Below are positions 5,074 to 16,804 of a stretch of DNA of 32,000 bases, one piece after another (within the stretch, counting starts at the first letter, position 1; each line of letters opens with the position of its first letter). The notes under the pieces were generated by a model that searched no databases, was not told the DNA's origin, and saw only the letters and a program-made list of their open reading frames with translations. This DNA is from Staphylothermus hellenicus DSM 12710. Lineage in GTDB: Archaea > Thermoproteota > Thermoprotei_A > Sulfolobales > Desulfurococcaceae. The translations under genes and the position numbers were made by a program. The stretch lies in the NCBI RefSeq assembly GCF_000092465.1, contig NC_014205.1, positions 1,380,001-1,412,000 on the forward strand. Direction: 5' to 3'.

Positions 5074-5913
5074 TTATAAGTTCTCTCCATAAATAAACAT
5101 GTTAATTACTGCTAGTGTTGATATTAATGCTTCCTCGCTCCTTATAGTTTTAACCATTTGTTCAGGTATTGTATTCCATACCTTATCAACTTTATTCTCT
5201 AGAGCAAAACCTTCCTTCTCAGCTATTTCATATAATCCTCTATGGGGGCCGCCGAATAATATTATTGTCGTCTTTCCTTTAACACCTGCTAATTCCTTAT
5301 AATTCGGAATCCTCCCATACCTGCTAGTAGCAATTATGAGGTCCACTATCCTCCCATATTCCTCTAAAACTTCTCGTAAACTATCCGCAAACGCGAGAAC
5401 AGGGCCCCTATATGGTTCCTCATCTAGACATATTGCTCTTCTAGTATTCATATCAACTATTTCAACATACCCTATATCGCCTGGCTCACAGTTTCCAGCT
5501 TCTATCCTATAAGGTTTTAAAAGCCCTATATCTGCCAACAACTTATTTTTCTCCTTATAGATAAAGCCTAGTCTCTTCTCTCCAACATAACCATTACGGC
5601 TTACATCGAAAATATTTAGTCTCAGCGGCGGCAATAATCCTACAAATTTTAGATCCGGATCTTTAGGTATAAGTTTTCTTCGTAGATAAGGAGGAGTTAA
5701 TAGGTATCGCCATATTTTCTCTATTAGAGCAGAGTATTTATTGTGCTGAGAAAAATCTGTGAATGGGTCGCGGAAGAATACTATTTCTAATACGCCAAAA
5801 ATAGAGGAATACCTGATAACCTGGTATATTTTCATTGTTTTTAAGAGAAGACTTGACTCAGTACTTAAAATACTAGTTGGTAATGCAACGAGGATTTTTC
5901 TAGAAATCTTCAT
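5074..5913 (-). CDS. SPOUT-superfamily RNA methyltransferase-like protein (DUF171/COG2106 type)
   Basis: C-terminal trefoil-knot-like segment TIILFGGPHRGLYEIA...VWNTIPEQMVKTIRSEEALISTLAVINM. From memory, this family is commonly encoded just upstream of rpl3 in archaea. Confidence 0.7.
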   Translation of the reverse strand: MKISRKILVALPTSILSTESSLLLKTMKIYQVIRYSSIFGVLEIVFFRDPFTDFSQHNKYSALIEKIWRYLLTPPYLRRKLIPKDPDLKFVGLLPPLRLNIFDVSRNGYVGEKRLGFIYKEKNKLLADIGLLKPYRIEAGNCEPGDIGYVEIVDMNTRRAICLDEEPYRGPVLAFADSLREVLEEYGRIVDLIIATSRYGRIPNYKELAGVKGKTTIILFGGPHRGLYEIAEKEGFALENKVDKVWNTIPEQMVKTIRSEEALISTLAVINMFIYGENL

Positions 5914-6020
5914 CTACGCTTCTTACCTTTAGCTCTTGTTTTCTCCCTAGCTTCTCGAGCCATTCTCTCCGTCACTTTCTCCTTCGTCAGAAATAAACTT
6001 GTTTTTTGTCTCCCACCCAT
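5910..6020 (-). CDS. candidate 36-aa highly basic small protein (not in ORF track)
   Basis: My translation: MGGRQKTSLFLTKEKVTERMAREAREKTRAKGKKRR. AAGGAGTGAGG SD-like motif lies ~8 nt upstream. Its TGA stop overlaps the ATG of the SPOUT gene (ATGA), suggesting translational coupling at the head of the r-protein operon. Confidence 0.35.
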   Translation of the reverse strand: MGGRQKTSLFLTKEKVTERMAREAREKTRAKGKKRR

Positions 6021-6156: not shown

Positions 6157-7827
6157 TTAAGCCCGCCTTTCATCATCGCTTATAATATGTTTATGTTTTT
6201 CTCTCATAAAAGTTGGTGTTCTAACATGTAGAATGATTGGATGAGGATCTAGAGCGTTTAGAAGGAGTGCTTCGCCCACACCTAGATATGCAAGCTTTTT
6301 CACAATTTCTCGAGGCAACCCTAGGAATCTCTCAGCATCTCTCCAATAATCCTCGTTTCTCGAACCAAACATTATGAGTAGATGTGTATTCTCTATTATT
6401 TCTCTTGGTATATCTCTAGGATTCTGAGTTGCTAGAACAACTCCTAAATGCTTGCTACGGCCTTCTTTAACAAGTTCTTCTAAACCATTTAAACGACTAA
6501 TTCTCCAAGCTTCATCTATAATTAAAAGCTTAGGTTTATCGATCATCTCAGTTGAGAAAACTAGTTTTTTATATATATGCATGAGAAGCCCGCCATAAGC
6601 ATTTTGGAAAGCTGTTCCATACTTTCCCAGATCAAAAACTACATGATTACTCAAATACTTCATAAGCACATCATACTTAGGCTTACTTGTAATAAGTTCT
6701 ATTAGGGGAGATAATAGCGATAAATCCCTGTCCAATAATACATCCTTTTCATTTATTACTTGGTTATTGCTTGTAATCTTATTCATTATTTTAATAAAAT
6801 TCTCTTTACTAATACCTATAACATTAGATAATACATCACTAACTGCTAAATACCAATCAATAATCTGGAAAAAGCTTGGTCTAACAAGAATATTGATCGG
6901 GTAATCGTTGGGAGTTAAATGTACTATGCCTTCACTGTAAACCATATTTGCTAAGTCCCCTTTAAAATCAATAGCGAAGACAAGAATACTTGACAAACTA
7001 GTTATACCCTCAATCATTGATGCTAGAAGAGTTGTTTTACCACGCCCTGTCGGGCCTAGTATTAGAACGTGTTTATCAAATAGTTTATAAGGTATTATTA
7101 CCGGCCATCCTGTCTCAGTATCTATTCCTATAGGTAAACCATCCTCTTTCTCCATTATAGGTTTTTTATTTTTAGGCAGAGGCATCATTGTCGATAATCG
7201 TTCATTATCTACTATTATTGATTTAATATTGGTTTCAATAGATAATCCTAATTCGTTTTTCAGAATATCCAATAATTCTCTTCGACTAGCCATTTTCATC
7301 TTGATACCGAAATAGTTTTGCATAATTCCCATAGTTTTGCTAGAATAAATATCCGCTAAATGTTTGGCATTATCTATACTATTTGAGACAACACGTATTT
7401 TAATGACTAAGTTAACACGAGTAATTGGTTTACTTTTAATAATATTTTCGTAAAGAGCTTCTAAGATTTTCAGTTTAACTTCTGCTCGTCTCTTAATATG
7501 CGGTTCTTCAACAGTATCCAATGTTGCACGCAAGTTCATCATTTCATTACTGATCTTTCGGAGAAGCTTTTCAATGCTCATTCTCCTTTTAATTATCTCG
7601 GCTTCTGAATAGGGAGGTAATGCATCTAACAATTCAGAAAACATGTTAGCCATTATCGATATTTTACTAGGATCTAATTCTTTAACACCATAATCAACTT
7701 CCTCAGCTATAAGATACCTGGTGAGATTTATTTTTCCCCGCAGAAACACTATTAGATCCGGAGGATCTATTTTATATTCTACTTTCCCACCTATTATTTT
7801 TTCAAATATTCTTACTATTTTTTTCAT
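6157..7827 (-). CDS. VirB4/TrbE/CedB-like P-loop ATPase (HerA-FtsK superfamily)
   Basis: Walker A VLILGPTGRGKTTLL, FAIDFKGDL, Walker B KLLIIDEAWRI, GVVLATQNPRDIP. This is the DEAW...TQ..D pattern characteristic of VirB4-type ATPases. Last gene of a membrane-protein operon. Confidence 0.8.
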   Translation of the reverse strand: MKKIVRIFEKIIGGKVEYKIDPPDLIVFLRGKINLTRYLIAEEVDYGVKELDPSKISIMANMFSELLDALPPYSEAEIIKRRMSIEKLLRKISNEMMNLRATLDTVEEPHIKRRAEVKLKILEALYENIIKSKPITRVNLVIKIRVVSNSIDNAKHLADIYSSKTMGIMQNYFGIKMKMASRRELLDILKNELGLSIETNIKSIIVDNERLSTMMPLPKNKKPIMEKEDGLPIGIDTETGWPVIIPYKLFDKHVLILGPTGRGKTTLLASMIEGITSLSSILVFAIDFKGDLANMVYSEGIVHLTPNDYPINILVRPSFFQIIDWYLAVSDVLSNVIGISKENFIKIMNKITSNNQVINEKDVLLDRDLSLLSPLIELITSKPKYDVLMKYLSNHVVFDLGKYGTAFQNAYGGLLMHIYKKLVFSTEMIDKPKLLIIDEAWRISRLNGLEELVKEGRSKHLGVVLATQNPRDIPREIIENTHLLIMFGSRNEDYWRDAERFLGLPREIVKKLAYLGVGEALLLNALDPHPIILHVRTPTFMREKHKHIISDDERRA

Positions 7828-7972
7828 TATACCACCATAGAATAGTTCTTAGAACAATAATGGATACTGTCAACAACACTATGAGCCCAATAATGCGTAA
7901 ACCAAATAACATCACAACAAATATTGGAAACAAAAACATCATTACCCAAATTATTTTCTCAGCTATACTCAT
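7802..7972 (-). CDS. candidate 56-aa two-TM membrane protein (not in ORF track; positionally VirB3/CedA2-like)
   Basis: My translation: MSIAEKIIWVMMFLFPIFVVMLFGLRIIGLIVLLTVSIIVLRTILWWYNEKNSKNI. Its ATG overlaps the TGA of the upstream 458-aa gene (ATGA). GGTGA SD lies 7 nt upstream. Its 3' end overlaps the ATPase start by 26 nt. Confidence 0.5.
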   Translation of the reverse strand: MSIAEKIIWVMMFLFPIFVVMLFGLRIIGLIVLLTVSIIVLRTILWWYNEKNSKNI

Positions 7973-9345
7973 AAACCAGTCACCACAATGCGGGCTATTC
8001 GCGAAGACGAGCCGCCTAAGAGTCTAGCTAATGCTAGAGATGCTGAAAATAAAACTGATAAGTAAATCATTGGTCCTAGAAATAGTCTATATATTAGGAT
8101 CGTTATTGGATAAACCAGGTTGGTTAGATCATTCATTTCTATGCCTAAAGTATCTCTTCCATAATATATTTCATCAAATACTGGCTCAGCTGTGCCGGAT
8201 AAAACATATGTAATCTCCACTAAGTGGTTACCCCTCGATAAACTGTACTCTTCTGCTTCAAACTTTGCTCCGCCCCATTCATAGGAATATGTGGTGGCAG
8301 GTTCTGCTTGAACATTATCTATTGATACAGAGAAGCTGTCGCTTTCTAAACCAATAATAATCATTGATGTAGCTTCTGATGCATTAATGTTGAGAATCGC
8401 TAGTGAATCATCCATGTAGAGGAGGCTGAAATTATTATAATTCATTAGTGCTAAGTATCTTAGAGGCTTAATAACTACTAGGTTATTGATTTTAATTGTT
8501 ATATTAACTATTCCTCTGCTTGAAGGATATTTTTTAGGATCAATCATGGTTTCATAGTGATAACCTGCAACATCTATTTTAACTCTATGCATACTATAAG
8601 GTATGCCTGTCTCAACAGTTGATGCATTAATGAATCCATTGGGATCAGATCTGTATCTAGCTTGAAGCTTGTTGTTTAAACTATATATTTCATATAAGCA
8701 ATAAGGAACACCAATATTGTTGTCGTCATAAACATGTATTTTTGCAAAAACAAATCCTTCATTACTAACACCTAAAATACTGGGAGGAGATATTGTATCT
8801 ATAAATCTAGGCATTAATGGCGTTCCAATACTGAATATTATCACTAAAGAAATAAGCATAGCCCCACTACTCCTCGTTATTCTAAAAGGAACGGAATGTA
8901 GAAGTATTCCCAGAGATAATATTGTTGGAGCCAATGTTACCAGTGCAGTTATTAAGATCGATGTTGTAATGAGAAACATTAACAAATATGTTAAACTCGA
9001 TACAAGAGGAGAAATCATAGAATTAGCGATAAATCCCAGACCAATACTGGATAACCCGATACCTATAAGTTTCAGCATAAGAATTGTCGTAACTATAACA
9101 TTTATCTCGTTTGCAAACCATAAATAATAGTTGTTCCAATCCGATCCCAGAGCTTCTCCGAGATAACCTATAATCCATAAAATAAAAGTATATGAGAATA
9201 CTAAAATAGCGGAAAATATACCATCAACCATTAGCTGGGGAGCCCATTTCTTTAAGCCATAAAAAGGTATTGGCAACATATAAATGAGGGTACCCATGTA
9301 ATAGGATAGAACAGATAAATAAAACGCTATCACTAATAGTTCCAT
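7969..9345 (-). CDS. polytopic membrane protein with a large beta-rich extracytoplasmic insert (candidate CedA/VirB6-like channel component)
   Basis: About 6 hydrophobic helices in residues 1-180. A ~220-residue hydrophilic, beta-strand-like region follows (VFAKIHVYDDNNIGVPYCLYEIYSL...VKIDVAGYHYETMID...). C-terminal hydrophobic helices (LVYPITILIYRLFLGPMIYLSVLFSASLALA) close the protein. The CDS itself is solid; the function is inferred from operon context. Confidence 0.6.
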   Translation of the reverse strand: MELLVIAFYLSVLSYYMGTLIYMLPIPFYGLKKWAPQLMVDGIFSAILVFSYTFILWIIGYLGEALGSDWNNYYLWFANEINVIVTTILMLKLIGIGLSSIGLGFIANSMISPLVSSLTYLLMFLITTSILITALVTLAPTILSLGILLHSVPFRITRSSGAMLISLVIIFSIGTPLMPRFIDTISPPSILGVSNEGFVFAKIHVYDDNNIGVPYCLYEIYSLNNKLQARYRSDPNGFINASTVETGIPYSMHRVKIDVAGYHYETMIDPKKYPSSRGIVNITIKINNLVVIKPLRYLALMNYNNFSLLYMDDSLAILNINASEATSMIIIGLESDSFSVSIDNVQAEPATTYSYEWGGAKFEAEEYSLSRGNHLVEITYVLSGTAEPVFDEIYYGRDTLGIEMNDLTNLVYPITILIYRLFLGPMIYLSVLFSASLALARLLGGSSSRIARIVVTGL

Positions 9346-9391
9346 GAGACAATCCCTGCAGAGTTTATTGTTTTAGAAGAACTCTTTAATA

Positions 9392-9658
9392 TTAAATAGT
9401 CGGAGGCTCCGGTAGAGGCTGGTAAAACGTATTTGCAACATAAGCTATCAATGCAAATACAGTAGTACCCATTGCTAACCAGAAAGCAGCCCACACTGCA
9501 TCCTCTATTAGCCTCTCCCCTGCTCTTTTAACCCTCATAAATGGAATAGGAGCCCCTTTAATAGCCCAACCTATAACCCATGTTAGAAAGAAAACTATCC
9601 AAGCAACAACAGTTATATTAACAATTATTTCCTGGATAAATCCTATTATGTCTGTCAA
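9392..9658 (-). CDS. 88-aa helix-loop-helix membrane protein (candidate CedA1/VirB2-like pilin)
   Basis: TTG start with GGGTGA SD 7 nt upstream. Two long hydrophobic helices are separated by the basic loop KGAPIPFMRVKRAGER. First gene of the operon, 46 nt upstream of the polytopic protein gene. Confidence 0.55.
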   Translation of the reverse strand: MTDIIGFIQEIIVNITVVAWIVFFLTWVIGWAIKGAPIPFMRVKRAGERLIEDAVWAAFWLAMGTTVFALIAYVANTFYQPLPEPPTI

Positions 9659-10070
9659 AATACTTCACCCTTTAATACGAAGAACATGTTTAAGTAATAG
9701 TGAGTTCTGTGAAAGTATTATTCCCTGTTATATTCTATAATGATCCCAGAATTTATTGTTCCAGCAGAGAAATACTGTATACCACTAAGTTTTGATTCGT
9801 GAACATATAATATTACAGGAATAACGTAATTTTCATATAAACACAATAGAGTATATTGCAGGGTTAAATGATGCTTTCCCTATATTAAATAGTGCCTATT
9901 CATTGTTGGACGCATCCTTTCATTCAACTCTTATAAACTGAATCTAGATAACTGCAAAATAAATAACCATCTAAATACTATAAAACACTTGAAGCAAACA
10001 TAAAAGCCCACGATTAATTTAACAGTTAAAAATAAAGGTTTAAACAAAATAGGCCCATGGAGATATTGTA
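9659..10070. promoter_or_regulatory. unusually long (412 bp) AT-rich divergent intergenic region between the membrane/ATPase operon and the PP-loop gene
   Basis: No ORF longer than ~20 codons on either strand by my reading. Several TATA-like A/T runs. It must carry both divergent promoters. Confidence 0.4.
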
Positions 10071-12041
10071 ATGAAGAAAATATGGCCTAAAAAGACAAGG
10101 ATTTACTGGGACCCAGAATATAATATACCGATAGTTAAGCCTTTACCGGGACAAGAGGATCTATTCTATATACTAAAACTCACAGAACCAGGCGATGCTA
10201 GACCAGCGTTTCATATTGATCATGAAAGGCTAATTAATGCTATAAAATATGAGTTTGGCGATGAAAAAATCTACAATGCATTCTTCAAGGACTATTTCAC
10301 ATTGCTTAACAAGGTTCCTCATTGGGATCAAATGTGGGAAACAATTGCTTCTGGTAATGTATTGGGCCAATTATACTATGATCCATTCCGTGAAAGATGG
10401 AGGTTTAGACTAAATTATGCAGGTGCATATATTGCTGTTAGAGACGGCCTCGTAGATCTTGTTAAAACCAGTAGTAAAGTCTTTAGAGGAACCTATATTA
10501 ATAAGTCCTCTACTAGTTCGCGTCAAGTAGTGATTATCAATGAGAAAGATGAAATAGTGGGTATTGGTGAAAATGTAGGGGATAAAATAATTGTTATAAA
10601 AACGTTCAGAGAAAAACGCTTACCAGTAGAAACCAGTATGAAGAAATCAAATTTGGAAACAGTCCTGAAACACAATGATTACGGCATAGAATTCTATAGA
10701 AGGAAAGCTGTAAAATTCCTAAGAAAACTCTACGAGAAAAACAAACTACCCATTGTTGTATCGTATTCTGGGGGAAAGGATAGTTTAACAGCATTGAATT
10801 TAACGCTTGAAGCATTTGGAGACGCTGAATTACTATTTAATGATACCGGGTTAGAATTACCGGAAACTATTAAGAACGTTGAGCATGTTTCAAAACATTA
10901 TGGTTTAAAATTAGTTAAGGCATCTGCAGGCGATGCATTCTGGAAATCAGTTTGGATCTTTGGTCCCCCCGGGAAAGATTATCGTTGGTGCTGTAAAGTA
11001 GCGAAGCTTGTGCCTATTGCTCGAGTAACCAGGGCTAAATGGGGTAATGGTGCACTAAATATTGTTGGTCAGAGAGCATATGAATCAATAGATCGTGCAA
11101 GAAGCCCTAGTGTTTGGAGAAATAGGTGGGTTCCACATCTATTGAGCGCATCACCTATTCAGGAATGGAACCAACTAGTTGAATGGCTTTATATAATTAA
11201 GTATAAGCTTCCATACAATAAACTATATGATATAGGGTTTGAAAGACTCGGATGTTATGTCTGCCCCTCAAGCACGCTAGCCGAGTTTAAGGAGATAGAA
11301 AAACATTACCCGGAAGAATGGCGGAAATGGATTAATGTTCTAGAGTATTGGAGGAAAAAATTAGATCAACCAATTGAGTGGATAAAGTATGGTTTGTGGA
11401 GATGGTTAACTCCAGCAGTGGCTAAATATAGATTAGCAAGACATATACCGGGATACAATGTAGATTGGAGACGAGAATATATATTAAGACTGCTGAATAG
11501 CACTGTCAATTTAGCCCCACTAAAGACCTCCTCTATTAATGAACATTTAACTATTATATTCAACAAGAACATAATTATTGACGAAGCACAACAACAACTA
11601 ATACATAATATACTTATGCTTAAGAAGAAAATCTATAGAGACAACGACAAGATCATAATTGAAACTAAAAATACAAGTATTATAATAGAGAAGAACAAGG
11701 TTGAGGTGTATCCTTATAAAGAACCTGAAAATTTAGAAGATCTAGTAGATCTCCTAAAAATAATATATAGAATCTATGGATGCGCCAAATGCGGAAGCTG
11801 CGTATTATGGTGTCCTCTAAAAATAATAAAGCTAACAAAATACGGGCCTATACCAACAAAGCCATGTATGGGTTGCAGAATATGCTTAGAAGTCTGCCCT
11901 ATCTCCGAGATATTGGTGGAGAAAGTAGTATTGCCATTGATAACAAATGATCCGGGTATATGGAAGAGGCCTAGTAGGAAACATGGATTGGAAGTTATAG
12001 AAACATTTCGTATGGCAGGGATAATACCTGGCGAAACTTAG
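10071..12041 (+). CDS. PP-loop ATP pyrophosphatase of the PAPS-reductase/DndC-like family with an N-terminal PUA-like region and a C-terminal 2x[4Fe-4S] ferredoxin domain
   Basis: PP-loop VVSYSGGKDS. Family motifs YRWCCKVAKL, GQRAYESIDRA and RLGCYVCP. C-terminal CAKCGSCVLWCP and CMGCRICLEVCP (two CxxCxxCxxxCP clusters). Residues ~100-180 (VVIINEKDEIVGIGE...) look PUA-like. Confidence 0.8.
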   Translation: MKKIWPKKTRIYWDPEYNIPIVKPLPGQEDLFYILKLTEPGDARPAFHIDHERLINAIKYEFGDEKIYNAFFKDYFTLLNKVPHWDQMWETIASGNVLGQLYYDPFRERWRFRLNYAGAYIAVRDGLVDLVKTSSKVFRGTYINKSSTSSRQVVIINEKDEIVGIGENVGDKIIVIKTFREKRLPVETSMKKSNLETVLKHNDYGIEFYRRKAVKFLRKLYEKNKLPIVVSYSGGKDSLTALNLTLEAFGDAELLFNDTGLELPETIKNVEHVSKHYGLKLVKASAGDAFWKSVWIFGPPGKDYRWCCKVAKLVPIARVTRAKWGNGALNIVGQRAYESIDRARSPSVWRNRWVPHLLSASPIQEWNQLVEWLYIIKYKLPYNKLYDIGFERLGCYVCPSSTLAEFKEIEKHYPEEWRKWINVLEYWRKKLDQPIEWIKYGLWRWLTPAVAKYRLARHIPGYNVDWRREYILRLLNSTVNLAPLKTSSINEHLTIIFNKNIIIDEAQQQLIHNILMLKKKIYRDNDKIIIETKNTSIIIEKNKVEVYPYKEPENLEDLVDLLKIIYRIYGCAKCGSCVLWCPLKIIKLTKYGPIPTKPCMGCRICLEVCPISEILVEKVVLPLITNDPGIWKRPSRKHGLEVIETFRMAGIIPGET

Positions 12042-14839
12042 TCATTATCTTTTAAATAAGTCTTAATTCTTAGATACTTCTTCTCGCTCTCATATAATTC
12101 GCTATATAAATCGTGGCCTTCAAGCACACGGTTAATTACACGAATAGCCTCGCTCACCCCGACTCCTCTAGAAGCTAGAACCTTGAGAGCTAATTCTCCG
12201 AACTGTGAATAAAGTATTGCTCGTTTCCTAAGATCTTCAAGAACAGCCTTTTCTTTCCTGCTTAACTTTGTTCTATTTAAAGCCTTCTTAACAATTATAG
12301 CTTCTTTCTCAGCATCCCCTTTAACCGGTGCCAGAGCCATATATCCACATCTAGGACATTTCCTAATATTAACCAACTTGCTTACGGTATCGGTGACCAC
12401 GTATCCACAATGTAAACATATTAAGCTCATCCGCCTCTTCATTATATGCTGCAAATACTTCTCCCTACCTGCCAATGAGGCTGGCATTACTGTTCTTATT
12501 TCACCATAATATGTTACTAACTGTCTCCCCCCATTAGTTAGTTTACTTGTAATTCTAGAGACAACTTTTATTTTACCATTTATGACTAAGTCAGCCAGTT
12601 TTCTGATTGATTCAATATCATAGTCTTTCCATAAAATCTCGTTTAACGCTTCATATCCTATAACAGTGTCCACAAAGGCTTCGAGCATAGCTCTAGTAAT
12701 TTTGTTTTTCTCAGGATCTATTGCTCCAAATCGTTGGGCTACTTGAAATATTCTCCAATGAATAGTGCCTTGTTCAATTGCTATTCTCTTTAAAATTTTA
12801 TGGTTCAGATATCGATTAATATTATGTATTACTTGTTCTATTGTTCTAACTACTTCTCTAACATATTGTTTATTATTTAATGTAATGAACACTGCGTATG
12901 GAGTAGAGTATGCATTAATTCTTAGAAACGGGTATCTCCATTGAACTACTGATTTCAATAGATCCCTCATAAACCTATTAACTCTTGAACCCCCATTAAT
13001 ATTAACTATTACGAGGCCGAGTTCAGTATTTCCCTCAATTATAATGGTTTTATCATCGGCGAGATCATTAATGCCTTCAAGTTTTATTTTATCATCCAAT
13101 AAGAGTGTTTTATAATAGTCAATCTTCTTGTTTGAAGAAATTCTTCTTATAAGTGATCCGACTTCTCTAGCTAGCTTGTATTCTACCGGTATGTTTTCGC
13201 CCTCCCAGTGAGGTATTACTATATTTTCGGATGCGCTATATGGTTCAACATATAGTTTAGCATTTTGTTGATCATATCCTATGACTTTCCACGGTTTTCC
13301 CCCAATAACTACTATGTCTCCTTCAGAGATATTTAGAACAACGTATTCCTCGTTTAACACACCTATTCGGCGGTCATCTACAATATTTATTATTATAACG
13401 TCTTTAGTGAATGGAATCATTGATGTTTTATATATGAATAATTTTGACCTAGAAGTTGGCTTGATAATATTATCTCTAACCTTGATAAGCCTAGCATATT
13501 TTAAGTATTCGATTAAGTCGTTGAATTCTTTTACATCAAGATCTCTATATATAGGATTCATAATTAACAATGAGTAAAGATCATATATGTTAATACCCCC
13601 AGTAAACAAACTATATAATACAATGGAATAAGCAAGAACATCTAATGGCTTAACAGGTATTCTCTCTTCCTCTATAACATTATTAATCGCTCTTCTAGCT
13701 ATTACGAGGGATTCTAGTATTTGTAAAGTATTGTTTTGAACAATTATTTCTCCACGAGAAACCCCAAATAATTTATGGCCGCTCCTACCAATTCTCTGAA
13801 CAAGCCTGACAACTTGTCTCGGAGACATGTATTGAATAACATAATCAATAAATCCAATATCAATACCTAGTTCCATGCTTGAAGTCGCAATTAAACCTTT
13901 TAAATATCCATTCCTAAAATCTTCTTCAACCCTTAATCTATGATTCCTTGACAAGCTTCCATGGTGAACTTCTACACGAACATTATTACCTCCTAATTTT
14001 TCGTCAGCAACTTTTAATAAATAACCAAGCTTCTCAGCTATCGATCTAGTATTGACAAATATGAGAATACTCCTCTTAGATCTAAACAAGTCATATATTC
14101 TAAGAATTCTAGCAATTAATTCTTCATCATCTATAATTGAGCCGAGAAGTTTACATTTATAATTATCCTTGCACTGGGGAACCACTACTTTTACATCGAT
14201 AGGCTTCAAAGTATTATCGATCAGCACATCTACGTTGCTAGGAAAAGTTGAACTACTCAATATTTCCATTGCCAAATTAATATTTTTCAAAGTTGCCGTT
14301 AAAGCGATCTTGATAAGTTTACGTCTGAGATGATGTTCTAATAGATAAATACTCGTTAATAATAATATACCACGTTTATTTTCTATTAAATCTCTAAATT
14401 CATCAATAACAATATATTTTAAATTAGCAAGATGTTTTCTCATCTTATTATTTATCAATATATAATTAAATGTTTCAGGAGTTGTAACGAGAATGTGAGG
14501 CGGATTTGCTTCAATATATTTGCGGATCTTATAGGGAGTGTCACCATGCCTTAAATTTATTGAAACCCCAAAACATTTAGCTAGCTTTTCCATTCTTTTC
14601 TTAATATCTCTATTAAGCGCTCTTAATGGTGTTATATAAATAGCCGATATTGGCTTATACCTATACTTATTTATTCTATACATTATTGGCAGCAGAGCAG
14701 CTTCTGTTTTACCAGAACCAGTTGGTGCAACAATTATTACAGAGTTTTTTTCATTATATATAGCTTTGAATGCTTTTTTCTGGAGAGATGTAAGTTCCCT
14801 ATATCCTATTTTCTGCAGACATTTAACAATATTGGTCAT
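12038..14839 (-). CDS. lhr: Lhr-type superfamily-2 DNA/RNA helicase with a C-terminal zinc ribbon
   Basis: Motif I APTGSGKTEAALLP, Ia YITPLRALNRD, II VIDEFRD, III LTATL, V ATSSMELGIDIG, VI QRIGRSGH. Long Lhr-like C-terminal extension with CLHCGYVV...CPRCG. Its stop overlaps the PP-loop gene stop by 4 nt (convergent). Confidence 0.85.
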   Translation of the reverse strand: MTNIVKCLQKIGYRELTSLQKKAFKAIYNEKNSVIIVAPTGSGKTEAALLPIMYRINKYRYKPISAIYITPLRALNRDIKKRMEKLAKCFGVSINLRHGDTPYKIRKYIEANPPHILVTTPETFNYILINNKMRKHLANLKYIVIDEFRDLIENKRGILLLTSIYLLEHHLRRKLIKIALTATLKNINLAMEILSSSTFPSNVDVLIDNTLKPIDVKVVVPQCKDNYKCKLLGSIIDDEELIARILRIYDLFRSKRSILIFVNTRSIAEKLGYLLKVADEKLGGNNVRVEVHHGSLSRNHRLRVEEDFRNGYLKGLIATSSMELGIDIGFIDYVIQYMSPRQVVRLVQRIGRSGHKLFGVSRGEIIVQNNTLQILESLVIARRAINNVIEEERIPVKPLDVLAYSIVLYSLFTGGINIYDLYSLLIMNPIYRDLDVKEFNDLIEYLKYARLIKVRDNIIKPTSRSKLFIYKTSMIPFTKDVIIINIVDDRRIGVLNEEYVVLNISEGDIVVIGGKPWKVIGYDQQNAKLYVEPYSASENIVIPHWEGENIPVEYKLAREVGSLIRRISSNKKIDYYKTLLLDDKIKLEGINDLADDKTIIIEGNTELGLVIVNINGGSRVNRFMRDLLKSVVQWRYPFLRINAYSTPYAVFITLNNKQYVREVVRTIEQVIHNINRYLNHKILKRIAIEQGTIHWRIFQVAQRFGAIDPEKNKITRAMLEAFVDTVIGYEALNEILWKDYDIESIRKLADLVINGKIKVVSRITSKLTNGGRQLVTYYGEIRTVMPASLAGREKYLQHIMKRRMSLICLHCGYVVTDTVSKLVNIRKCPRCGYMALAPVKGDAEKEAIIVKKALNRTKLSRKEKAVLEDLRKRAILYSQFGELALKVLASRGVGVSEAIRVINRVLEGHDLYSELYESEKKYLRIKTYLKDND

Positions 14840-14935: not shown

Positions 14936-16804
14936 ATGAAAAATATGGATGATGATATGATTAATAAATATGTAGCTTGGATAAGGATTATTGTTGGGCT
15001 CATCATCAATTTCTTATATGTACATATATTGTCTCTTGTCTATAGCGGTTATAATATAGGTGGTCTAATACCTAATCCGTATTCCAATAGTGTTGTAATT
15101 TTTTTATTAAATATCGTCTTTGTTCTCGTTTCAAGCCTATTATATTCTTCGAACATTCTCGGAGTAATAAACTATACTATTATATATTGGTTAAATAAGT
15201 ATGTACTCAAATCCGGAATTGGTACAGCATTTTATGTTTATATGTTCTCACTTATCATAGCTCTAATATTTACTATATTGATTACTACAAAAATTTTGGG
15301 AACACATGATCTTATTCGAGAATATAGTTTTATAAAATCATTTGATATTTCTATTTTACATTTAATTACAATATATTTATCTATTCTTTCACTTAGCTTG
15401 CCTTTTTTATATCCTGTTTTCTATAGGGCCATGAAGTATTTTCTAATGGATAATATTGGCATAGTTGCTAATGCGATCATAACATCTGTATTTTCGCTGC
15501 AGGGTATGAGGAAATACATATATATTGTTCCTCTAGGAGTACTATCTATCTTTAGCTATTTAGCATCAGTTCCAATTATAGCATATATTTTATCTATTAT
15601 GATATCATATGAAGTATTTGAGTATAAATTATCAAAAATAATAACTCAGAACAGCGAACACATATATTTTGGAAAGATAAAAGCGATCCTTACATATGGT
15701 GTTCCTAGAAAAGTGTATCAGGAAATACATCATTATCGCCTCAAAAAGAAGACATGGTTTTGGAGAGCGATCGAAAAACCTCTATATATAGATCTAACAT
15801 CTTTGCCTAACAGACATATTTTAATAACAGGTGCAAGTGGTACGGGAAAGTCCTTGCTTGCAAAACATCTTGTCCTCGAAATTTATAAAAAATACGGACA
15901 TTCCTTTATAATTATAGATCCACATAATGAATATAAAATTCTTAGAAGATATATCCCTAAAATAAACATAGTAGATGCTTCAACACTTAGCATTAATCCA
16001 TTGGAACTTGGACGCTTAGGCCCGAAAGAAAAAGCATACCAGATATCAAGTTTCATATCAACCCTTTTCAAACTAGGCCCGATACAGAGGCATTTATTTG
16101 CAGACCTAATATTAGAGGTATATAGGTTAAAAGGAATTTATCCGGATAAGCCGGAAACGTGGAGCAATAAACCTCCGACAATACATGATCTATTAGAGTT
16201 CTGTCAGAGATTAATGAGTGATAATGAGCTCTATAAGAAAATCTATCCATATCTGCGAATTCTAGCTGATAACGTCTTTAGCTCGACAAATATTAGCTTT
16301 TATGATCTAACAAAAACTCCTACAATAGTGACCCTAAATGGTTTAAGTAGTGATTTTGTAAAGGCATTATATGTGAATGCTCTTTTACAGAGAATATTGG
16401 ATAGTATGTATATTGGTGAGTTAAGGAAGAAACTAATGATAGTGCTTGATGAAGCATATATGTTTCTTAGAAAAGGATTAAGCAGAAACATTGTATCAAA
16501 ACTATTAATGGAGAGCAGAAAATATGGTCTAGGATTAATAATTATATCACAACAGATCCTAGCAGTACCGGATCCTGTTGTGGAAAATTCTTCTATAAAG
16601 ATCTTTTTCAACACATCTGAGCCTAAAAACCTGGAATACTCTTCCCGGATAATATGTAGTGGATGCGATAAATACGGAATTATTGCTTCAAAATCGGCTT
16701 TAACAAATCTTAAAAGCTATAATTATATTCTATCAATTAGTGGGTTTAACGAAATATTTATTGTTAATGAAGAGGATATTGCACAAAATATGTATGCAGG
16801 GTGA
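14936..16804 (+). CDS. HerA/FtsK-type (DUF87-like) P-loop ATPase fused to an N-terminal polytopic membrane domain
   Basis: Residues ~10-230 contain ~7 hydrophobic helices. The ATPase part has Walker A ILITGASGTGKSLLAKH, the HerA-like IIIDPHNEY, Walker B LMIVLDEAYMF and ESRKYGLGLIIISQQ. Confidence 0.8.
   Translation: MKNMDDDMINKYVAWIRIIVGLIINFLYVHILSLVYSGYNIGGLIPNPYSNSVVIFLLNIVFVLVSSLLYSSNILGVINYTIIYWLNKYVLKSGIGTAFYVYMFSLIIALIFTILITTKILGTHDLIREYSFIKSFDISILHLITIYLSILSLSLPFLYPVFYRAMKYFLMDNIGIVANAIITSVFSLQGMRKYIYIVPLGVLSIFSYLASVPIIAYILSIMISYEVFEYKLSKIITQNSEHIYFGKIKAILTYGVPRKVYQEIHHYRLKKKTWFWRAIEKPLYIDLTSLPNRHILITGASGTGKSLLAKHLVLEIYKKYGHSFIIIDPHNEYKILRRYIPKINIVDASTLSINPLELGRLGPKEKAYQISSFISTLFKLGPIQRHLFADLILEVYRLKGIYPDKPETWSNKPPTIHDLLEFCQRLMSDNELYKKIYPYLRILADNVFSSTNISFYDLTKTPTIVTLNGLSSDFVKALYVNALLQRILDSMYIGELRKKLMIVLDEAYMFLRKGLSRNIVSKLLMESRKYGLGLIIISQQILAVPDPVVENSSIKIFFNTSEPKNLEYSSRIICSGCDKYGIIASKSALTNLKSYNYILSISGFNEIFIVNEEDIAQNMYAG

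Follow-up and report, generated by a model that had tools for sequence, protein, structure and literature searches.

A probable chromosomal Ced operon in Staphylothermus hellenicus and its relatives

What kind of apparatus is encoded by a compact block of four minus-strand genes on the chromosome of the archaeon Staphylothermus hellenicus DSM 12710? The block occupies positions 6157–9658 of the 32,000-nt stretch of contig NC_014205.1 (positions 1,380,001 to 1,412,000) that was analysed here as a whole and is referred to below as the window. The answer that we favor, with a probability of about 0.9, is that the locus is a chromosomal Ced (crenarchaeal exchange of DNA) operon and encodes an apparatus of the type IV secretion kind that has been domesticated. 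The first gene, cedA1 (9392–9658), has a TTG start and encodes an 88-aa VirB2-like two-helix hairpin pilin that lacks a signal peptide. It is followed by cedA (7969–9345), which encodes a 458-aa polytopic protein that is a putative VirB6-like platform or channel, by a gene in the position of cedA2 (7802–7972) for a 56-aa hairpin protein with two transmembrane (TM) segments and a basic tail, and by cedB (6157–7827), which encodes a 556-aa VirB4/HerA-type ATPase composed of a VirB4-like N-terminal domain and a RecA-type ATPase domain. In the list of open reading frames (ORFs) of the window, a 46-nt gap separates cedA1 from cedA (9346–9391), cedA shares an ATGA overlap with the 56-aa gene (7969–7972), and the latter overlaps cedB by 26 nt (7802–7827). 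The 556-aa translation carries GPTGRGKT (Walker A) at aa 258–265, IIDEAW (Walker B) at aa 436–441 and ATQNPRD at aa 466–472. The original prediction, which was made from the letters of the window, had described four co-directional genes with these sizes, junctions and ATPase motifs, and the ORF list and the sequence agree with it throughout. Its proposal of a Ced-type DNA-transfer machine is borne out by a CedA1 score above the equivalog cut-off, a match to the solved Ced pilin, CedA and CedB as the top families of the two large proteins, a VirB4/TrwK fold for the ATPase, and the co-conservation of the genes.

Core components of the operon

The 88-aa protein is identified by its profile and structure matches as a bona fide CedA1 pilin, orthologous to the Ced pilus subunit of Aeropyrum pernix. 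It scores 123 bits with the NCBIfam equivalog model Ced_CedA1 (NF041797; cut-off 100), it aligns over residues 2–76 with the solved A. pernix Ced pilin (PDB 8DFU; E 2.5e-24), and PF27251 CedA1 is present in 61 of its homologues. A scan with the CedA1 profile, restricted to one genome per species, returned 80 loci from the Desulfurococcaceae, Pyrodictiaceae, Ignisphaera, Acidilobaceae, Thermogladius and one metagenome-assembled genome (MAG) of Saccharolobus; the A. pernix ced locus itself was left out of the locus comparison. In nearly all of these loci, cedA is immediately followed by a 50–72-aa two-TM ORF, cedB comes next in most loci of sufficient extent, and all core ced components are co-conserved. 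Since the order cedA1, cedA, small two-TM ORF and cedB, located via CedA1, recurs in dozens of independent genomes, the four-gene block is not a chance arrangement. In every non-Sulfolobales locus (~70 examined), cedA1 is followed by a gene for a CedA of 444–497 aa, and the enlarged CedA is thus a lineage-wide state. A short CedA, ≤324 aa by longest ORF, was found only in the Saccharolobus MAG locus (L064, 10001–11195).

The 458-aa protein is CedA, in the form of a divergent orthologue. Its top family is NCBIfam CedA (140.6 bits, E 6.5e-41, aa 2–186), and CedE follows at 105.6 bits. A CedA1-like hairpin occupies residues 2–63, and the CedA profile matches the 8DFU pilin with an E-value of 3.7e-4; a pilin-homologous N-terminus is a published hallmark of CedA (PMC9905601). 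The 62 full-length homologues range from 436 to 482 aa and span 100% of the 458-aa form, while homologue alignments of the 556-aa CedB begin at residue 4–5. Because homologue alignments reach them, the longer start codons of both CedA and CedB are supported. Motifs resembling a Shine-Dalgarno (SD) sequence, GGTG, precede cedA1 and cedB. The NCBI call for CedA is 436 aa, a form in which most of TM1 is lost, and one public call for CedB is 530 aa; both calls look N-terminally truncated.

What accounts for the length of the polytopic protein? An AlphaFold2 (AF2) model of CedA built from 39 homologues, with a mean predicted local distance difference test (pLDDT) score of 86.4, comprises a helical membrane core at residues 1–186, an all-beta insertion, and a C-terminal TM helix at residues 408–442. 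The insertion (8146–8778, minus strand; ~210 aa, aa ~190–400) has its modeled strands at residues 198–381 and is likened by Foldseek to tandem beta-sandwiches of the immunoglobulin/CnaB/transthyretin-like kind, with matches to the Gram-positive pilins BcpA, RrgB and EbpC, the S-layer protein SlaB, and transthyretin. N-glycosylation sequons occur in the insertion at 2.3 per 100 aa versus 0.12 elsewhere in the protein, a difference of ~19-fold, and exceed the composition-shuffled expectation with a mean z of 2.6. The insertion has acidic flanks, whereas basic charge is found in loop 1, loop 4 and the C-terminal tail; an extracellular insertion would bring the loop charges into line with the positive-inside rule. 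Given the sequon enrichment together with this distribution of charge, the ~210-aa insertion is probably extracellular.

The 556-aa ATPase is a CedB orthologue with VirB4 architecture. Its top family is NCBIfam CedB (E 3.5e-32), with residues 36–536 aligned on model positions 75–587; it also matches CedD at 45.6 bits and VirB4/HerA models at ~26 bits. Two verified Sulfolobales CedBs, P0229 and P0266 (823 and 890 bits, past the equivalog cut-off), align collinearly with it. For the full-length AF2 model (pLDDT 88.3), the best PDB match is TrwK/VirB4 of R388 (8rtd_O), with an E-value of 1.2e-17, a query-normalized template-modeling score (TMq) of 0.59–0.61 and a root-mean-square deviation (rmsd) of ~7 Å. 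The ATPase falls outside the plasmid-type VirB4 family, as TIGR00929 VirB4 gives it 25.6 bits versus a cut-off of 643.

A different identity to consider for this protein is that of a HerA-type repair helicase, in which case the membrane genes would be unrelated neighbors. By sequence profile, its nearest solved structures do belong to the HerA clade (4D2I, E 2.8e-19, versus E 1.8e-7 for the VirB4 structure 4AG5), and its Pfam matches are HerA_C and DUF87; such nearness of the CedB family to the HerA clade is already part of the published classification (PMC11868833). In the AF2 model, however, only the ATPase domain resembles HerA (TMq ~0.42, rmsd ~15 Å), whereas VirB4/TrwK matches both domains and the NCBIfam CedB alignment covers nearly the whole protein. 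In addition, no HerA equivalog appears among the top NCBIfam matches, no nurA, mre11 or rad50 gene is adjacent, and the coupling of cedA1 with cedA is conserved. A repair helicase beside unrelated membrane genes is barely credible on these grounds, and we retain the identification as CedB. The test put forward in the original prediction, whether the ATPase clusters with repair HerA or with VirB4/CedB, needs qualifying: the protein groups with CedB over repair HerA, but the sequence of its ATPase domain is nearest to structures of the HerA clade.

Two features of the cedB region may be recorded here. A perfect palindrome with a 7-bp stem, TAGATCCGGAGGATCTA, lies within cedB at 7753–7769, where it spans the codons of a conserved N-terminal DPPDL motif and was flagged on both strands by a terminator scan. 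Between cedB and a Methyltrn_RNA_3 methyltransferase gene, the public assembly has a 36-aa ORF (~5910–6020, minus strand) that overlaps the start of the methyltransferase gene. Scans of the window for Rfam families, tRNAs and bacterial-type promoters and terminators yielded nothing relevant.

The 56-aa hairpin protein and the anchoring of CedB

How is CedB held at the membrane? No hydrophobic segment was found in the first 110 residues of the S. hellenicus protein, and positions 1–74 of the NCBIfam CedB model are unmatched. CedBs of the Staphylothermus clade (540–560 aa) lack an N-terminal TM, whereas a two-TM hairpin is present in Sulfolobales CedBs and in other long members of the family. 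TM helices have been reported in only about half of CedB, CedD and VirB4 proteins. As CedB has no TM anchor of its own, it would depend on a partner in trans for membrane attachment. The coupled 56-aa hairpin protein, CedA or both are the most plausible tethers, a proposal in which we have modest confidence.

The distribution of the small ORF is consistent with such a role. Where the small ORF is present, CedB lacks a TM in 31 loci and bears one or more in 6; where it is absent, the corresponding numbers are 1 and 6 (Fisher's exact p = 8e-4, uncorrected for phylogeny). In loci that lack the small ORF, CedB carries one N-terminal TM and is encoded directly after cedA. This third operon layout is seen in L060, L071, L073, L074/L076, L079 and L080, in which cedB starts 0–9 nt after cedA and the CedB is shorter (439–525 aa), its N-terminus bearing a single TM; the layout includes the Acidilobaceae locus. 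Loci L032, L034 and L046 have the small ORF together with a ~605-aa CedB that bears two TMs.

The 56-aa protein corresponds to CedA2 in gene position, size and topology, three traits that are conserved across loci. It matches no family, including Ced_CedA2 (NF041798) at E ≤ 1, and it matches neither VirB3 nor any other solved structure. Elsewhere, NF041798 weakly matches one member of the clade (E 0.069) and a small ORF of the Saccharolobus MAG (E 0.004). Comparisons of the small ORFs by hhalign between lineages, against the N-terminal hairpins of CedB, and against CedA1 gave nothing above reversed-sequence controls, and we attribute the lack of signal between the small proteins to fast divergence. 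All three membrane proteins are nevertheless co-conserved with the ATPase, and CedA1 and CedA match Ced models. One possibility considered for its origin was that it is a split-off N-terminal hairpin of CedB. This is not supported: hhalign probabilities did not exceed those of the reversed controls, and several loci have both the small ORF and a TM-bearing CedB. CedA2 has been described as not conserved (PMC9905601, PMC11868833), a statement that is qualified by the presence of a positionally conserved small hairpin gene; the conservation of this gene also suggests a membrane-tether role for CedA2.

The overlap between the small ORF and cedB raised a further possibility, that a programmed frameshift or transcriptional slippage fuses the hairpin to CedB. 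The overlap at 7802–7827 contains an A7 run, ATGAAAAAAAT, and loss of one A in the transcript would yield a hairpin-CedB fusion. In 35 of 38 loci, cedB starts in frame +1 relative to the small ORF, a regularity that is explained by descent plus the constraint of the overlap. Within the 3'-terminal part of the small ORF, an SD-like GGTG is conserved, whereas no slippery sequence is, which led us to reject the fusion and to favor translational coupling. The small ORF and cedB are thus predicted to be translationally coupled and not frameshift-fused, and the A7 run of S. hellenicus, which is unconserved in other loci, is probably incidental. A small TM protein encoded just upstream of the ATPase, and coupled to it, is the VirB3-VirB4 arrangement of operons for type IV secretion systems (T4SSs).

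Promoter and chromosomal setting

Is expression of the operon tied to DNA damage? In Saccharolobus (Sulfolobus) islandicus, a 20-bp DNA damage-responsive element (DDRE) with the hexamer ANTTTC is bound by Orc1-2 and needed for cedA1 induction (PMC6061795). Upstream of the S. hellenicus cedA1, at 9700–9719 on the minus strand, lies a DDRE-like element, AATACTTTCACAGAACTCAC, that differs by 2 mismatches from the S. islandicus consensus AATAGTTTCRGWDTACTCWS and is the sole match to that consensus in the window, in which 0.04 matches are expected. Its hexamer, ACTTTC, is at 9716–9711, 58 nt upstream of the TTG, and is followed by a TATA-like ACTTAAA (~9695–9689) and an SD-like GGGTGA (~9670–9665).

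The element recurs at orthologous cedA1 promoters, which were drawn from loci L003–L082. Of 74 promoters, 35 have the hexamer A[CG]TTTC at 52–66 nt before the start codon, compared with ~5% for other genes (p ~3e-21, uncorrected for phylogeny), and the hexamer lies 17–20 nt upstream of a TATA-like CTTAAA or TTATTAAA. When 28 distinct promoters are anchored on the hexamer, conservation is seen at positions +6 (R), +12 (C), +14 (C) and +16 (C), where it agrees with the Sulfolobus consensus, while the flanks are unconserved. Both the DDRE-like element and its position are conserved across the Desulfurococcaceae and Pyrodictiaceae. No enrichment of the hexamer was found upstream of the cedD-like, lhr, PAPS-reductase-like, cedB and methyltransferase genes.

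The upstream region of cedA1 in the Saccharolobus MAG locus has no exact ANTTTC at the expected position, though DDRE dependence has been published for the cedA1 promoter of S. islandicus, and the ced loci of S. acidocaldarius are reported to lack the DDRE motif (Le et al.). We found no published report of a DDRE at cedA1 promoters outside the Sulfolobales. Sun et al. left open whether Orc1-2 proteins of non-Sulfolobales regulate the damage response (PMC6061795), and the conserved element at cedA1 makes it a testable question whether these proteins run a DNA-damage response.

Genes farther upstream of cedA1 form a conserved neighborhood that includes a divergent gene for a PAPS-reductase-like Fe-S protein with a weak DndC-like match (10071–12041, plus strand), a gene for a 933-aa Lhr-type DEXH helicase (12038–14839, minus strand), which matches Pfam DEAD, Helicase_C, WHD_Lhr and DEAD_assoc as well as NCBIfam helicase families, and a gene for a 622-aa CedD-like ATPase (14936–16804, plus strand), 5.3 kb from cedA1. 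The last protein has ~5 N-terminal TM helices, with its TM segments within residues 18–223, and a HerA/VirB4-type ATPase domain; its top NCBIfam match, CedD, is confined to the ATPase domain and reaches 73.8 bits (E 1.1e-20) with a cut-off of 600. Within 8 kb upstream of cedA1, at least 17 of 47 loci, from several lineages, have a CedD-like homologue on the opposite strand, and at least 19 of 47 have an Lhr homologue on the same strand. The genes between the ced operon and lhr/cedD-like vary, and Lhr abuts cedA1 in the Pyrodictiaceae and Ignisphaera. CedD is a published Ced component (PMC11868833, PMC11823120), and the CedD-like ATPase of S. hellenicus is a probable additional component of its Ced system. 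For the Lhr helicase, a functional link to the ced operon is something that we only infer, and no literature linking Lhr to Ced was found.

One might suppose that the locus belongs to an integrated conjugative plasmid or an integrative and conjugative element with a T4SS that exports its own DNA. Components related to VirB2, VirB6 and VirB4 would be expected in such an element, and archaeal conjugative plasmids do exist (PMC9905601). The surroundings speak otherwise: no integrase, relaxase or plasmid genes were found near the locus, GC content is uniform, and the flanking genes are housekeeping ones, including those for ribosomal proteins L3/L4/L23/L2, PCNA, Rpo13, pyruvate:ferredoxin oxidoreductase (POR), HisRS and RtcB. 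Synteny with the housekeeping neighbors is kept across families, and coverage of the ATPase by PLSDB plasmids does not exceed 27%, the matches being partial ones to bacterial ATPases. The ced locus is chromosomal and is not on a mobile element, and we regard a self-exporting conjugative element as exceedingly improbable.

Proposed function and comparison with known systems

How might the Ced apparatus of S. hellenicus work? By extension from Sulfolobus genetics and A. pernix cryo-EM, CedA1 would polymerize with membrane lipids on a CedA platform to form a hollow pilus, and membrane-docked CedB hexamers would power the assembly of the pilus, the translocation of DNA or both. The apparatus and the CedD-like membrane ATPase encoded nearby may jointly pull DNA from a neighboring cell into the cytoplasm for recombinational repair. 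The beta-sandwich ectodomain of CedA may extend into the space beneath the S-layer and there support the pilus as a stalk or collar. DNA damage may induce the operon by way of the DDRE-like element that is conserved ahead of the TATA box of cedA1.

Several observations weigh against this reading or parts of it. CedA reaches 140.6 bits with an NCBIfam equivalog cut-off of 330, and CedB 111.8 bits with a cut-off of 700; as these scores are far under the cut-offs, we call the two proteins divergent orthologues. Sequence homology of the 56-aa protein to CedA2, the N-terminal hairpins of CedB or VirB3 is not demonstrable, and six loci break with a tether in trans as a general rule by combining a small ORF with a TM-bearing CedB. 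The Sulfolobales, where Ups pili provide cell contact, are the only group for which DNA import has been demonstrated (PMC9905601, PMC11868833).

Because import has been shown only in the Sulfolobales, a Ced-type pilus could serve in adhesion, biofilm formation, cell-cell contact or DNA export in this lineage, and not be dedicated to DNA import. The traits in which the Staphylothermus type differs, namely a large CedA ectodomain and a TM-less CedB, could be read in this way, as could the lack of a Ups system in some Ced-bearing species (PMC9905601) and the report that S. islandicus CedA1 and CedE aid export as well (PMC11868833). On the other hand, all core Ced components are orthologous, and the linked CedD-like ATPase and Lhr helicase and the DNA-damage element at the promoter all fit a role linked to DNA repair. 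A pilus without a dedicated import function is therefore improbable in our estimation, and a Ced operon for DNA import remains the preferred reading.

A more far-reaching proposal is that ced in the Desulfurococcaceae and Pyrodictiaceae is under a DDRE/Orc1-2 circuit of the Sulfolobales type, as part of a regulon that predates the Sulfolobales, and that the Staphylothermus-type machine is a distinct Ced variant, in which the coupled ~55-aa hairpin protein tethers a TM-less CedB in a VirB3-like role and the CedA ectodomain serves as a stalk that enables a true extracellular pilus to pass the S-layer. We put this forward tentatively and hold it to be rather unlikely as a whole.

Ced is one of few chromosomal DNA-exchange machines known in archaea. 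The system has already been described for this archaeal group, and the S. hellenicus locus adds no new system type, although Staphylothermus is not named in the Ced papers that were searched. We did not find descriptions of the CedA ectodomain, of a TM-less CedB with a coupled hairpin gene, of the linkage of cedD with lhr, or of the conserved DDRE. Outside the Sulfolobales, these features bear on the anchoring and regulation of Ced and on the means by which it traverses the S-layer. To our knowledge, Ced pili have never been seen in Sulfolobales. The sole solved Ced pilus is that of A. pernix, and all non-Sulfolobales loci examined encode a CedA with the ectodomain, which the Sulfolobales form lacks.

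The A. pernix system (8DFU; Beltran et al. 2023, PMC9905601) shares with that of S. hellenicus an orthologous CedA1 with the unprocessed type of N-terminus; both systems are chromosomal and both species belong to the former Desulfurococcales. CedA2 is reported to be absent from A. pernix (PMC11868833), whereas S. hellenicus has the conserved small two-TM gene.

The Sulfolobales systems have counterparts for the components of that of S. hellenicus, including the CedB-family ATPase and, probably, the CedD-like paralogue, and an ANTTTC-type DDRE is found at the cedA1 promoter as in S. islandicus. The original prediction held that the gene order departs from that of Sulfolobus. This is correct for cedB, which is distant in S. 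acidocaldarius (saci_0748) and contiguous in S. hellenicus, but the small-large-small order is shared with the cedA1-cedA-cedA2 genes of S. acidocaldarius, where saci_0567 is cedA2, saci_0568 is cedA and saci_0569 is cedA1 (PMC11823120). An enlarged CedA had likewise been noted, and the 458-aa protein does exceed the 259-position Sulfolobales model, which lacks the ~210-aa beta-sandwich insertion; such a size is the norm outside the Sulfolobales, however, and not peculiar to this locus. Further differences are the N-terminal two-TM hairpin of Sulfolobales CedB, which is absent from the S. hellenicus protein, and the larger polytopic N-terminus of the S. hellenicus CedD-like protein compared with Sulfolobales CedD.

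With bacterial T4SSs, exemplified by R388 (TrwK/VirB4, TrwI/VirB6, TrwM/VirB3 and VirB2), the S. hellenicus locus has in common an ATPase of VirB4 architecture and a VirB2-like pilin (PMC9905601), along with a small TM protein that is encoded just upstream of the ATPase and is apparently coupled to it in translation. The locus lacks an outer-membrane core, VirB8/9/10, a relaxase and a coupling protein of the bacterial type. According to the literature, bacterial T4SSs export DNA, whereas the Ced family imports it. The Ted system of the Thermoproteales (TedA/B/C) is also a chromosomal apparatus derived from VirB2, VirB6 and VirB4 (PMC9905601). Its pilin has a cleaved signal peptide and Ted has no sequence similarity to Ced, whereas CedA1, CedA and CedB of S. 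hellenicus match Ced models.

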